Notes: a model not told the origin generated them from the letters alone. 64,000 nt of DNA from Fibrobacteria bacterium (GCA_017881725.1 JADGQO010000135.1:65807-129806); one strand, 5' to 3'; shown: positions 15,081 to 21,951, numbered from the stretch's first letter. Numbers and translations are program-made.

Positions 15081-16562
15081 ATGTCGAATCGCGGTGTAAT
15101 TGTTTCAGTACGCGGGAGCGTAGTCGATATCCGGTTTGAAGGTCGGTTGCCGCCCATCTATTCCATCCTGCGCACGGGCGAAGGTGGTGCGATCGTCATC
15201 GAAGTGCTGACTCAGCTTGATGACTGCAAGGTGCGGGGGATCGCGCTGACGCCGACCCAGGGATTGGCGCGGGGCATGGCGGTAGAAGATACGGGCGGCC
15301 CGCTCAAGGCTCCGGTCGGGAAAGCGGTCCTCTCGCGCATGTTCGACGTTTTCGGCAAGGTCATCGATCGCGGCGAGCCGCTGAAGGATGTCGAATGGCG
15401 TTCGGTGCATCGCGCCCCGCCGCCTTTGTCGAAGCGATCCACAAAGTCGGAAATCTTCGAGACCGGCATCAAGGTCATCGACGTGCTGGTGCCGTTGGAA
15501 CGCGGAGGCAAGGCGGGCCTCTTCGGTGGGGCGGGTGTGGGGAAGACCGTGCTGCTCACCGAGATGATCCACAATATGATCGGGCACCAGGAAGGCGTGA
15601 GCATCTTCTGCGGGATTGGAGAACGTTGCCGCGAGGGCGAGGAACTTTATCGCGACATGAAGGAAGCGGGCGTTTTACCGAATATGGTGATGCTCTTCGG
15701 ACAAATGAATGAGCCGCCCGGAAGCCGTTTCCGCATCGGTCATGCCGCCTTAACCATGGCCGAATACTTCCGCGACGACGAACATCGCGATGTCCTGCTG
15801 CTTATCGACAATATCTTTCGGTTCATCCAGGCCGGATCGGAAGTATCCGGCCTGCTGGGACGGATGCCGTCACGTCTGGGTTACCAGCCCACCATGGGCA
15901 CCGAGTTGTCGGGATTGGAAGAGCGCATCGCCAATACCGATACCGGCGCCATCACCTCCATTCAGGCCGTCTACGTGCCCGCCGACGATTTCACCGATCC
16001 AGCCGCCGTGCATACCTTCTCGCATCTCTCCGCTTCAATCGTGCTTTCGCGCAAGCGTGCCAGCGAAGGACTGTTTCCCGCCATCGATCCGCTCCAATCC
16101 AGTTCCAAGATGGCCACGCCCGGCATCGTCGGCGAACGTCACTACAACCTGGCGCAGGAGATCCGCCGAACACTCGCCCAGTATGCGGAGCTCAAGGACA
16201 TCATCGCCATGCTCGGACTGGAACAGCTTTCTCCCGAAGACCGCAAGGTGGTCGCGCGCGCGCGCCGGCTGGAACGGTTCCTGACCCAGCCCTTCTTTAC
16301 CACCGAGCAATTCACGGGCATGAAGGGCAAGCTCGTAAGCCTCAAGGATTCCCTGGACGGCTGCGAGCGCATCCTGCACGATGAGTTCAAGGATTTCCCA
16401 GAAAGCGCATTGTACATGATCGGGACCGTTGACGAGGCAAAGAAGCCGGAGAATAAGGAGAACAAGGAGAAGGCTGAAAATACCGACAAGGCCAACAAAT
16501 CAGAGAAAACCGCGAAGTCGGTTCTGGAGGTGCAGCCTGCAGCAGCCGCTCATGAATCTTAA
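15081..16562 (+). CDS. atpD: N-type ATPase F1 beta subunit with about 40-aa Lys/Glu-rich C-terminal tail
   Basis: Walker A '[10 protein letters not shown]' and a 'DELSPEDR'-like region are present. Gene order is atpD first, which is N-ATPase-like. The C-terminus is '[27 protein letters not shown]...'. Confidence 0.95.
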
Positions 16563-16941
16563 GATCCTCCTGCCCTTCGGCATCTTCGCTGCCAAGACCG
16601 GCGTCAAGCGTCTTGTCGTAGAAACGCCCGCCGGGTCCTTTGGGTTCCTGCCGCGTCGGCTCGATTGCGTGACGTCCCTGGTTCCGGGAATATTGGTCTA
16701 CGAAGTGGAATCGGAGGGCGAGACCTTCACCGCGGTGGATGAAGGCGTACTGGTTAAAACCGGCGCGGACGTGCTCATCTCGGTTAGACGCGCCGTGGAC
16801 GGATCCGATCTCACGCGCCTCCGGGAGACGGTGGCAAAGGAGTATCTGACTTTGGACGACAATGAAAAAAATGTCCGATCGGTGATGGCCAAACTGGAAA
16901 CCGGTTTCCTGCACCGGTTCGCGGCTTTCCAACATGGATGA
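16552..16941 (+). CDS. atpC: N-ATPase F1 epsilon subunit
   Basis: '[12 protein letters not shown]...[13 protein letters not shown]' is epsilon-like. The ATG overlaps the atpD stop. The track ORF from 16429 is an upstream extension. Confidence 0.75.
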
Positions 16942-17269
16942 GGAGACAAAAGGAAAGTCCGACAGCGGGGACGGGTTTGGGGAGCGGGTGGGGGCCAAGG
17001 CCGATCGCTTGCTTAAGGTGAAACGGCATCCGCCTCAGGGAGTCTGGTTTGGACTGGGCATGATGGGCCTGATCGGCTGGTCGGTGGTGATCCCCACCGT
17101 AACCGGTGCGTTACTGGGGTTGTGGCTGGACGCGCGCCATCCCGGCAGCCATTCCTGGACCTTGGCGCTTTTGATGGCCGGTCTGGTGCTGGGATGCGGC
17201 AATGCCTGGCGCTGGGTCGCGAAAGAGGAAAAAGCGATGCGACGGGAACAGGAGGGCGACGATGCATGA
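16934..17269 (+). CDS. atpQ: N-ATPase accessory membrane protein AtpQ (AtpZ/AtpI-like)
   Basis: 111 aa with two hydrophobic helices ('VWFGLGMMGLIGWSVVIPTVTGALLGLWLD'). Its position after atpC matches the N-ATPase operon layout. Confidence 0.5.
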   Translation: MDEETKGKSDSGDGFGERVGAKADRLLKVKRHPPQGVWFGLGMMGLIGWSVVIPTVTGALLGLWLDARHPGSHSWTLALLMAGLVLGCGNAWRWVAKEEKAMRREQEGDDA

Positions 17270-19407: not shown

Positions 19408-21064
19408 AAACCTGGAAGGCGCCGTCGACCGGGCCCTCGCTGGCCTGAGGCAAATCCGCGAAAACTTTCGGCCGCAGATCATTCCCCATGAGGTGGGCCT
19501 GATCGCATCGGTATCGACAGGTATCGCCAAGGTTACGGGGTTGCCGGGCGTGGGTTACGAAGAACTTATCCGATTCCCGGGCGGGGTCTCCGGCATCGCC
19601 TTCAATGTGGACGAAAACGAAATCGGCGTTGTGTTGCTTGGCGAATACTGGCACCTCCAGGCCGGCGATGAGGTGGAACGTACGGGGCGCGTCATGGACG
19701 TCCCCGTGGGCGACGGGCTGCTTGGCCGCGTACTCGATCCGCTCGGACGGCCGCTGGATAACCATGGTCCAGTCGCTTCGCAGGGAAGGCTGCCCATCGA
19801 AAGGCCGGCGGCGGCCATCATGGATCGTGCGCCGGTCACAGTGCCGCTGCAAACGGGACTCAAGGTGATCGATGCGCTCATTCCCATTGGGCGCGGGCAG
19901 CGCGAATTGATTCTCGGGGACCGGCAAACCGGCAAGACCGCCATCGCGCTCGACACCATTCTCAACCAAAAGGGCAAGAACGTTCTCTGCGTCTACTGCG
20001 CCATCGGCCAGCGCGCCTCGGCCGTGGCCAAGGCGGTTGCGGTCCTCCAGGAAAAAGGCGCGATGGAATATACGGTGGTGGTCGTATCGGAAGGCAACGA
20101 TCCTCCCGGGCTCGCTTATATCGCCCCCTATGCCGCAACCAGCATCGCCGAGCATTTCATGGAGACTGGCCGCGACGTGCTCATCGTCTATGATGATCTC
20201 ACCCAACATGCGCGCGCTTACCGCGAATTATCCCTGCTGCTCCGCCGCCCGCCCGGCCGTGAAGCCTTTCCCGGGGACATCTTCTATATCCATTCCCGCA
20301 TGCTCGAACGCGCCACCCACTTGGGCAAGGAGCATGGCGGCGGTTCGTTGACCGCCCTGCCCATCATCGAAACCGAGGCGCAAAACATCTCCGCCTATAT
20401 TCCCACCAATCTGATTTCGATTACCGACGGACAGATCTACCTGTCGCCGAGCCTGTTCGAGTTGGGCGTATTGCCCGCCGTGGACGTTGGCAAATCCGTT
20501 TCCCGCGTGGGCGGCAAGGCGCAGCGGGCCGCCTATCGGGCCGTTGCCGGCGATCTCAAATTGGCCTATGCGCAATTCGAAGAGCTGGAAACCTTCGCAC
20601 GTTTCGGCGCGCGTCTGGACGATGACACGCGCAAGAAGCTGGAGCACGGTCGTCGCATCCGCTCCTGCCTCAAACAATCAGAATTCTCCCCCGTCTCTGT
20701 ACCCGCGCAGATCATGGTCCTCCTGGCTTTGACCGGCGGCCTGTTTGATCCGGTCCCGATGGAGAAAATGAAAGAGGCGGAAAAGGCCGTCCAGGCTGCT
20801 GCGACGGATATCCCGCAGGAAATCGTAACCCGCTTCGAAGCCACGGCGAAACTGGCCGACGACGATCGGAAAGCCATCCTCGCCATTGCCGATAAGACCC
20901 TGACGCCCTTCCGGCCCAAGCCCAATCCGGATGACAAGGACAAAGCAAAGGTCGATAAAAAAGTAGCCTCCAATACCGATGCGAAGGCCGACTTGAACCA
21001 TGAGGCGAAGTCCGAAGCAAAGACCACGGCCAAACCTAGTCCGGTAAACGAGGCGGCCGCTTGA
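19391..21064 (+). CDS. atpA: N-ATPase F1 alpha subunit with about 45-aa Lys/Asp/Ala-rich C-terminal tail
   Basis: Walker A '[11 protein letters not shown]'. The C-terminus is '...[47 protein letters not shown]'. Confidence 0.95.
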
Positions 21065-21951
21065 GCGAGAACACCGAAAGCCTGCGCCGCAAGATGGCCA
21101 GCGCCGGCGATCTTCAATCCGTTGTCCGCACCATGAAAGCCCTGGCGGCCTCCAGCATCGGTCAGTACGAAAAATCCGTTCAAGCCCTCTCCGAATATTA
21201 TCGAACCGTGGAACTCGGCTTGGCCGTATGCTTCCGGGAAATCCAATCCACCACGCCGGACCCGGCAAGGAAACCGCACGCGGATACGGGCGCCATAGGC
21301 GCAATTGTTTTCGGGTCCGATCAGGGATTGGTAGGTCAATTCAACGAAGTGGTGGCCGACTATGCCATCAAGGCCATCCACGCGCTGGGAACGAAGTCCG
21401 GTAAGCTTCAGGTGTGGGCCGTGGGTGAAAGGGTCCATTCCCATTTAGCCGAAGCGGGGCTTCCCATAGCGGGCCTGTTCGCTGTGCCCACTTCTGTTGC
21501 GGCCATTATTCCCTTGGTCGGGAAAATCCAAATCGCAAGCGAATCCCGACGCGGAACTGACGATACGGCGCGCGTTTTCGTCTTCCACAACCGTCCGCAA
21601 GCCGGCGGCCAATATGAGCCCTTCAGCCAACGTTTATTGCCGCTGGATTCCGAATGGCAACGGGGATTGGCCGATATCAAATGGCCCGTTAAAACGGCGC
21701 CGCAAGTCTTGGCCGGTGCGGCCCCGACCTTGATCTCCCTGGTGCGCGAATATCTGTTCATCTCCCTCTTCCGAGCCTGCGCGGAATCCCTAGCGAGTGA
21801 AAATGCGAGCCGCCTTTCGGCCATGGAACGGGCGGAAAAGAATATCGGGGAATTACTGGAACAGTTGCATGGCACCTTCAACCAACTCCGGCAGAGCGGC
21901 ATCGATGAGGAATTGTTCGACGTGATCTCCGGATTCGAGGCAATGTCGTAA
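21061..21951 (+). CDS. atpG: N-ATPase F1 gamma subunit
   Basis: 296 aa with a gamma-subunit N-terminal helix '[25 protein letters not shown]' and a C-terminal helix. Its start overlaps the atpA stop. Confidence 0.85.

Follow-up and report, generated by a model that had tools for sequence, protein, structure and literature searches.

A predicted Na+-translocating N-type ATPase operon at the end of a sugar-phosphate gene cluster in a Fibrobacteria bacterium

The DNA analyzed here, termed the window, is a stretch of 64,000 nucleotides from a Fibrobacteria bacterium (GCA_017881725.1, JADGQO010000135.1:65807-129806). At positions 15081-21951 of its forward strand it harbors an operon that, judged from its sequence, encodes an N-type (N1No) rotary ATPase (N-ATPase), a member of the laterally spread sister family of the bacterial F-ATPases. 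The operon comprises nine open reading frames (ORFs), each of which overlaps its neighbor or lies at most 15 bp from it. They form a single co-directional cluster in the order atpD-C-Q-R-B-E-F-A-G, which is the canonical N-ATPase order (Dibrova 2010). The subunits were assigned by NCBIfam and Pfam profile scans, using the curated cutoffs of NCBIfam, as follows:

15081..16562, + strand: atpD, N-type beta subunit, 493 residues (TIGR03305, 891.7 bits, cutoff 752)
16552..16941, + strand: atpC, epsilon subunit, 129 residues, the same length in an independent gene call (TIGR03166, 156.3 bits, cutoff 100.1; PF02823)
16934..17269, + strand: atpQ, small membrane protein, 111 residues (TIGR02230, 114.8 bits, cutoff 46.7; PF09527)
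17262..17597, + strand: atpR, marker subunit of N-ATPases, 111 residues (TIGR03165 and PF12966)
17587..18282, + strand: atpB, a subunit, 231 residues, GTG start (TIGR03306, 376.1 bits, cutoff 302.1)
18298..18579, + strand: atpE, c subunit, 93 residues (TIGR03322, 154.5 bits, cutoff 130.85)
18583..19407, + strand: atpF, long b subunit, 274 residues (TIGR03321, 299 bits, cutoff 224.7; PF00430)
19391..21064, + strand: atpA, N-type alpha subunit, 557 residues (TIGR03324, 921.5 bits, cutoff 750.5)
21061..21951, + strand: atpG, gamma subunit, 296 residues (TIGR03323, 400.6 bits, cutoff 282.35)

An earlier note on this DNA, made from the sequence alone, had proposed the same gene order and limits. 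Both are borne out by the nine ORFs and the N-specific models, the only refinement being the start of atpR at 17262, where the Met is kept in 71 of 76 relatives and an independent gene call also gives 111 residues. The genes atpD and atpC overlap by 11 nt, and the TTG start of atpG overlaps the stop of atpA (TTGA). All seven core subunits exceed the cutoffs of the "alternate F1F0 ATPase" NCBIfam models over nearly the full model length, with E-values of the N-specific models reaching 1e-277, which excludes chance as the cause of the matches. By profile scores the seven subunits group with the N-type rather than the F-type, the N-specific models surpassing the generic F-type ones by 891.7 versus 624.9 bits for beta and 921.5 versus 644.2 bits for alpha. 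Together with the canonical order, these scores agree with the N-ATPase operon type named in the note.

The two small membrane proteins, AtpQ and AtpR, precede subunit a, as the note had pointed out. AtpQ (PF09527/TIGR02230) stands in place of AtpI, as the definition of N-ATPases asks. The AtpR proteins of N-ATPases have three hydrophobic segments, two of which carry a conserved Arg (PMC2881411). In the window the two Arg codons of atpR lie at 17415-17417 and 17505-17507, and the residues are conserved in 78 of 78 and 73 of 76 relatives, respectively. Both sit in hydrophobic segments; a hydropathy scan (KD19 > 1.4) found two stretches, and the segment of the first Arg was judged by eye. Profile scans detected no separate delta (atpH)/OSCP gene in the operon or among the upstream genes, in agreement with the claimed absence of delta, and none lies immediately upstream of atpD, a position that the note had singled out as decisive. 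Residues 177-244 of the b subunit form a delta/OSCP-like C-terminal part (PF00213 OSCP, E=3.6e-7). A tblastn search with all nine subunits found no second atp operon in the 64-kb window and returned only cross-hits between alpha and beta.

Alignment of the beta subunit with solved F1 beta subunits runs from end to end and shows that the Walker A motif GGAGVGKT (15525-15548) and the catalytic stretch GER(C)REG are kept. The essential Arg164 of the a subunit (AVRLFGN, 18076-18078) is aligned with the RLFGN of solved a subunits. An independent gene caller applied to a Logan contig of the same organism yielded identical product lengths for eight genes. By these features the operon is intact, with no sign of decay. 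In addition, exact copies of the c subunit, AtpR and MiaA of the window occur on short Logan contigs of run SRR10489815, which places the organism in that sample. No solved N-ATPase holoenzyme was found in the PDB, where AtpR has no relative and b matches ordinary b subunits only. The operon itself is one more example of the well-catalogued N-ATPases and will not surprise a specialist; ProAD lists 1807 of them, about half predicted to be Na+-coupled (PMC11738941).

For comparison we used the 80 loci closest to the beta subunit of the window, termed the related loci. Their beta subunits are 79-90% identical, and about 75 of the 80 preserve the order of the nine genes. The labels of these loci include Acidobacteriota, Verrucomicrobiota, Gemmatimonadaceae, Planctomycetaceae and Nitrospirales, in addition to several proteobacterial classes, Armatimonadetes, Melainabacteria and Methanosarcina. 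Such similarity of beta across phyla, along with the kept gene order, fits the known lateral mobility of N-ATPases. Three of the loci (L012, L060 and L006) carry 1.5-2.7 kb of extra DNA between atpA and atpG, which breaks the otherwise strict operon. Both large subunits of the window end in low-complexity tails: a Lys/Glu/Pro/Ala-rich one of 41 residues in beta (16440-16562), which measures 10-69 residues in relatives, and a Lys/Asp/Ala-rich one of about 50 residues in alpha (20900-21064). In the window, as often in relatives, the beta tail closes with HES, a mere consequence of the overlap between the beta stop and the conserved start of atpC (CATGAATCTTAA).

The c subunit was aligned by BLASTP with that of Ilyobacter tartaricus, whose reference sequence is identical to PDB 1YCE chain A, and by HMMER with that of Fusobacterium nucleatum (PDB 3ZK1). 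The note had claimed a full set of Na+ ligands, made up of a Gln of AQQPD in helix 1 and the IESTAIY stretch of helix 2. The helix-2 part stands, for E63-S64-T65 and Y68 correspond to E65-S66-T67 and Y70 in both 1YCE and 3ZK1. The helix-1 part does not: Q43-Q44-P45 of AQQPD fall on the cytoplasmic loop R45-Q46-P47, and the ligand of helix 1 is Glu30 in PALGEGR, aligned with Gln32 of 1YCE and Glu32 of 3ZK1 (P26-A-L-G-E30-G against P28-G-V-G-Q32-G and P-G-I-G-E32-G, respectively). The Gln is therefore misplaced in the alignment with I. tartaricus, an outcome that the note itself had counted against its claim; the site is nonetheless complete, in another form. Because the helix-1 ligand position holds Glu30, this form is the two-carboxylate rather than the Gln version of the Na+ site, which by alignment consists of E30 (18385-18387), the M61 backbone, E63, S64 and T65 (M61-I62-E63-S64-T65, 18478-18492) and Y68 (18499-18501). 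The correction shows how an N-type site is to be read, with the Glu of PxxGEG as the helix-1 ligand.

This Gln-to-Glu change, combined with ESTxxY, has been described as the characteristic Na+ signature of N-ATPases (Dibrova 2010, PMC2881411). As cited in PMC5376962, the two-carboxylate ring of F. nucleatum is Na+-driven (Schulz et al. 2013), and the N-ATPase of Aphanothece halophytica is reported there to be Na+-coupled. Under the rule of ProAD a complete motif means Na+ (PMC11738941), so that the enzyme of the window would be classed as Na+-translocating, and Na+ coupling is what we predict. In a survey of 69 c subunits of the related loci, all have E63, S64, Y68 and the QQPD loop; 63 have Glu30 and 41 have Thr65, the latter being kept in only about 60% of these close relatives. 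The motif E..AQQPD..MIESTAIY occurs exactly as in the window in 39 of the 69, which makes it the commonest full motif. Helix 1 carries an Ala-rich packing motif, C23-x-A25-x-A27-x-G29-x-G31. By analogy with Burkholderia pseudomallei, whose AxGxAxAxG motif goes with a c17 ring (PMC5376962), it hints at a large c-ring. Where F-type c subunits have a conserved RQP(D/E), the loop of the window reads QQPD (18424-18435). QQPD occurs in 69 of the 69 related loci, and in the plasmid-borne N-ATPases of Legionella, Polymorphobacter and Picosynechococcus; the loop of B. pseudomallei c is reported to be RQPD (Schulz et al., PMC5376962). Speculatively, QQPD could keep an N-type ring from pairing with the F-type gamma and epsilon subunits of the host.

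All genes between positions 1 and 21951 lie on the forward strand with short gaps or overlaps, and the ATPase operon forms the end of this 22-kb cluster. Annotation with Pfam and NCBIfam gave the following genes ahead of it:

1-879, + strand: PPK2 (ADP-polyphosphate phosphotransferase)
876-3068, + strand: alpha-glucan phosphorylase (GlgP)
3061-3714, + strand: HAD hydrolase
3711-4928, + strand: acetate kinase
5068-7332, + strand: Cu P1B-type ATPase with an N-terminal heavy-metal-binding domain
7329-9743, + strand: phosphoketolase
9777-10805, + strand: class I fructose-bisphosphate (FBP) aldolase
11053-11247, + strand: YHS-domain protein, 64 residues
11313-12398, + strand: cupin resembling phosphomannose isomerase (PMI-like)
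12389-13177, + strand: HAD-IIB protein resembling phosphomannomutase (PMM-like)
13174-14331, + strand: GH130 phosphorylase
14618..15073, + strand: orphan ORF for a Met-rich secreted protein, 151 residues, with a signal peptide

The Cu P1B-type ATPase and the YHS protein are interspersed among the sugar-phosphate genes. The Met-rich ORF stops 8 bp short of atpD, and the two may share a transcript. Met accounts for 35 of its 151 residues (23%), arranged in MxxM/MMxM runs. It matches no family, has no homologue among 5.8 billion proteins and is absent from all 80 related loci. The ORF is probably translated, since its G+C content at third codon positions (GC3, 0.67) resembles that of host genes, and its product may bind Cu(I), given the CopA-like ATPase and the YHS protein nearby.

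Two features on the reverse strand mark the border between the 22-kb cluster and a set of housekeeping genes (ligA, miaA, tatD, purH, purC and lptF/G):

22187-22262, - strand: tRNA-Gly(GCC), 236 bp past atpG, with its 3' end toward the cluster, supported by Rfam
22160-22187, - strand: GC-rich hairpin and T-run following the tRNA-Gly

The GC3 reaches 0.725 in the operon, against 0.688 for the upstream cluster and 0.643 for the housekeeping part at 22-64 kb; the comparison of composition suggested in the note reveals a shift, albeit a mild one. In a window-wide search with up to three mismatches (<=3), the only att-like repeat of the tRNA-Gly 3' end was the tRNA itself, and the large ORFs scanned included neither an integrase nor a transposase. 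With a tRNA at its border and a mild GC3 shift, without repeat or integrase, the cluster is possibly a tRNA-associated genomic island, which may extend to the left beyond the window. The Rfam scan yielded the tRNA only, with no riboswitch or leader. A 95-nt "tRNA-Thr" called by Aragorn at 466-560 (- strand) lies inside the PPK2 ORF without Rfam support and was set aside as a probable false positive. Beyond the border, 34733-40600 (+ strand) encodes a protein of 1955 residues with NIDO, Ig-like, HYR, PKD, CHB_HEX_C and Fn3-associated domains. This large protein is probably secreted or located at the cell surface, and ahead of it an Ig-domain outer-membrane beta-barrel protein is encoded at 31966-33765.

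Some of these neighbors recur beside other N-ATPase operons. In a survey of the related loci, counted within the available flanks of about 10 kb, phosphoketolase (51-88% identical) lies near the operon in 28 of the 80 loci from many phyla. In 26 of these 28 it shares the strand of the atp genes (one-sided binomial p ~1.5e-6). The survey also placed acetate kinase nearby in 15 loci, PPK2 in 11, often directly 3' of atpG, a P-type ATPase in 14 and GlgP in 5-6. An unbiased clustering of the flanking ORFs of the 80 loci ranked phosphoketolase (28) first after the ATPase subunits, followed by P-type ATPase (15), acetate kinase (14), PPK2 (11) and PRC-barrel proteins (10). Lower in the ranking are HAD-IIB (7) and DUF2254 (7); aldolase, glucan phosphorylase, a putative glucoamylase and a Na+/H+ exchanger (6 each); pyruvate kinase, phosphoglucomutase and histidine phosphatase (5 each); and polyhydroxyalkanoate (PHA) synthase, phosphoglucose isomerase (PGI) and isoamylase/GlgX (4 each). 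The P-type ATPases of the 14-15 loci belong to differing subfamilies. In an independent sample based on AtpR (50-70% identity), four of four loci pair phosphoketolase with an N-ATPase.

Individual loci illustrate how tight the arrangement can be. In the AtpR-based sample (L088, L090, L092 and L094), a HAD-ackA-xfp (phosphoketolase) set lies immediately 5' of atpD in L088, and in L090 fba sits just before atpD and ackA-xfp-ppk2 just after atpG, the end of which overlaps the ackA start. On a 2.9-Mb NCBI chromosome (L092) tal-ackA-xfp-DUF2254 run ahead of atpD. In L094 the operon follows glgP-xfp-PMI-PMM-GH130 and is itself followed by ppk2 and a P-type ATPase. A Polymorphobacter plasmid carries tkt-zwf-rpe-ackA-gnd-tal-pgi-rpiA-xfp divergent from atpD, and a Hymenobacter plasmid has tpiA before the operon and pgm with alpha-glucan phosphorylase after it. 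On the Croceicoccus plasmid the neighbors of this kind are limited to an aldolase and a P-type ATPase; the Legionella plasmid has a gene of the thymidine-phosphorylase family, a phosphoribosyl-pyrophosphate (PRPP) synthase and a pta-like gene. In B. pseudomallei, adhA, pta, ackA and pfk are the flanking genes of the N-type operon BPSS1945-1953, and they and the operon rise together in a gvmR mutant (PMC5964159). A literature search that excluded most subscription journals found no paper joining phosphoketolase with an N-ATPase.

Taken together, we think it probable that the window encodes an intact N-ATPase working as a Na+-exporting pump, the end unit of a cluster that would turn reserve polymers into ATP. 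The polymers would enter by phosphorolysis, glycogen through GlgP and beta-mannoside through GH130. Mannose 1-phosphate would be converted to mannose 6-phosphate by the PMM-like protein and on to fructose 6-phosphate by the PMI-like protein, and phosphoketolase and aldolase would then lead to acetyl phosphate, from which acetate kinase would make ATP; PPK2 would add ATP from polyphosphate. Such a route would give ATP without respiration and without net redox change. ATP hydrolysis in alpha3beta3 would turn gamma-epsilon and the c-ring against subunit a, with a and the delta-ended b as the stator. As the ring passes Arg164 of a, it would export Na+, or H+ when Na+ is scarce, and Glu30 would remain protonated and function as a ligand, as its counterpart does in F. 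nucleatum. The enzyme would accordingly be a pump and not the ATP synthase of the cell, one that could sustain the Na+ gradient and the membrane potential and expel Na+ when respiration fails in anoxia, starvation or salt stress.

Two observations lead to this proposal. The operon ends a cluster that could make ATP from reserve polymers, for which reason its likely role is the upkeep of the gradient without respiration; and since the phosphoketolase linkage recurs, substrate-level ATP from such polymers is suggested as the drive of the pump. An ATP consumer that builds a gradient would be the natural partner of a redox-neutral ATP route when respiration is unavailable. We infer that the neighborhood points to membrane energization from substrate-level ATP at least as strongly as to salt tolerance; the salt extrusion proposed in the literature does not conflict with it and could be one of its facets. 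The wider proposition, that the N-ATPase of this clade is the output device of a conserved and laterally spreading "reserve-to-gradient" supra-operon rather than a free-standing salt pump, is more tentative, and we rate its chances at slightly under even. If true, the N-ATPases, whose part in the cell is still called largely unexplored, would gain a concrete physiological function open to test. That phosphoketolase, acetate kinase, PPK2 and glycan phosphorylases are repeatedly encoded beside the operon offers a modest but testable lead on what N-ATPases do.

Several observations weigh against the proposed role and the predicted coupling ion. The phosphoketolase link is not universal, being absent from the available flanks of 52 of the 80 loci, and Picosynechococcus pAQ7 has none of the sugar-phosphate and acetyl-phosphate neighbors. 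Distances of beta and phosphoketolase are uncorrelated (Mantel r=0.10, p=0.34, n=14), as are those of alpha and phosphoketolase (r=-0.09), compared with r=0.46 (p=0.011) for beta and alpha; co-transfer as a single unit is therefore unsupported. The scan for promoters and terminators gave no more matches than shuffled controls, so that transcription units are undefined by it. The N-type operon of Burkholderia thailandensis was not among the genes reported to be induced by O2 limitation (PMC3966863); it is temperature-regulated, together with genes for nitrate reductase and universal stress proteins (PMC3966863). Many related loci appear to come from soil or peat (peat or fen labels in the record names) and not from saline sites. 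As to the ion, the sole N-type ring tested biochemically, that of B. pseudomallei, is H+-specific and lacks the Ser/Thr pair (E-T-M..Y) (PMC5376962), and c-rings that bear the Na+ motif are able to work with H+ at low Na+.

The strongest of the alternatives, to which we assign roughly one chance in four, is that the operon was laterally acquired as a Na+ extrusion pump for salt tolerance and has functionally unrelated neighbors. The complete Na+ motif of the c subunit would suit such a pump, as would the slightly higher GC3 of the operon relative to its flanks and the high identity of beta across phyla (79-90%). Na+ extrusion has been proposed for marine and halotolerant hosts (Dibrova 2010, PMC2881411), and the six related loci noted above have a gene for a Na+/H+ exchanger close to the operon. 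The neighbors, however, are non-random and metabolic: xfp, ackA, ppk2 and glgP turn up in different phyla, co-oriented with the operon and in many cases with stop and start codons that overlap. Moreover, many loci with the same motif appear, by their record names, to be metagenome-assembled genomes from soil, peat and freshwater, and in the 64-kb window neither compatible-solute nor other salt-specific genes came to light.

Somewhat less probable, at about one in five, is an H+-pumping N-ATPase for pH homeostasis, in which the Na+-type residues would merely form a hydrogen-bond network round the proton. A role of this kind has been proposed for B. pseudomallei, Methylacidiphilum and strain HY1. 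It draws on the H+ specificity of the tested c17 ring (PMC5376962), with which the window shares Glu30 as a second carboxylate, on the ProAD prediction that about half of the N-ATPases are H+-coupled, and on habitats of the relatives that may be poor in Na+. That H+-specific ring, however, has Thr-Met in place of Ser64/Thr65, whereas the full E/E-S-T/Y set of the window equals the Na+-binding ring of F. nucleatum residue for residue.

An ATP synthase of "low gear" seems less probable again: its c-ring would be large and its ion/ATP ratio high, so that even a weak gradient of Na+ or H+ would suffice for ATP synthesis, in place of ATP consumption, under energy limitation. The helix-1 motif C-x-A-x-A-x-G-x-G is of the Ala-rich type that goes with large rings, and a large ring cuts the ion-motive force needed for synthesis, but ring size is not readable from sequence. 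N-ATPases are reported almost always to occur beside a primary F- or A-type enzyme, and deletion of the operon in Methanosarcina acetivorans left ATP synthesis unaffected (both Dibrova 2010, PMC2881411). The adjoining ATP-producing enzymes also fit a consumer of ATP more simply. Lastly, the canonical F-type ATP synthase of the organism, or a decayed remnant, can be dismissed: generic F-type models do match every subunit, but the far higher scores of the N-specific models, the D-C-Q-R-B-E-F-A-G order, the presence of AtpR and the missing delta rule out the former, and ORFs that span the models end to end with their catalytic residues kept rule out the latter.

Among known systems, the lxa locus of Burkholderia cenocepacia and the mycobacterial DosR regulon resemble the wider neighborhood only, through genes that recur near N-ATPase operons, namely those for acetate kinase, PHA synthase, universal stress proteins and a cation P-type ATPase. 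Compared with them, the cluster part of the window has no detected gene for a regulator or a universal stress protein. The lxa locus, as described, has several gene types in common with the window but no rotary ATPase, and it was retained as an analogy rather than as a counterpart. The c-ring of I. tartaricus and Propionigenium modestum (1YCE), which belongs to their primary ATP synthase, shares ESTxxY and the helix-1 proline with the window (44% identity over 73 residues), but its helix-1 ligand is Gln32 where the window has Glu30. The F-type c11 ring of F. nucleatum (3ZK1) has E32/E65/S66/T67/Y70, equivalent to E30/E63/S64/T65/Y68 of the window; it differs in its canonical F-type operon, its ARQPE loop and its GxGxGxGxG motif, as opposed to QQPD and CxAxAxGxG.

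The B. pseudomallei operon BPSS1945-1953 is of the same type, with Glu30 at the same position, an Ala-rich helix 1 and ackA/pta/pfk in its flanks (PMC5964159). Its c subunit has E61-T62-M63..Y66 and RQPD (Schulz et al. 2017), whereas that of the window has E63-S64-T65..Y68 and QQPD; because the ligand residues differ, Na+ binding is predicted for the window and not for B. pseudomallei. The N-ATPases of Picosynechococcus PCC 7002 (pAQ7) and A. halophytica are like the window in gene order, AtpQ, AtpR and the long b subunit with its delta-like end, and likewise have no delta gene. The operon of the window differs from them in the low-complexity C-terminal tails of beta and alpha and in its host, which is not a cyanobacterium, as indicated by the Lpt and BamD-like genes of the housekeeping flank. 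Unlike that of pAQ7, it is chromosomal and joined to a sugar-phosphate and acetyl-phosphate cluster. The c subunit of PCC 7002 (PALGEGM...AQQPD...MVESTAIY) is nearly that of the window, both having a Glu in each of the two helices in addition to ESTxxY.

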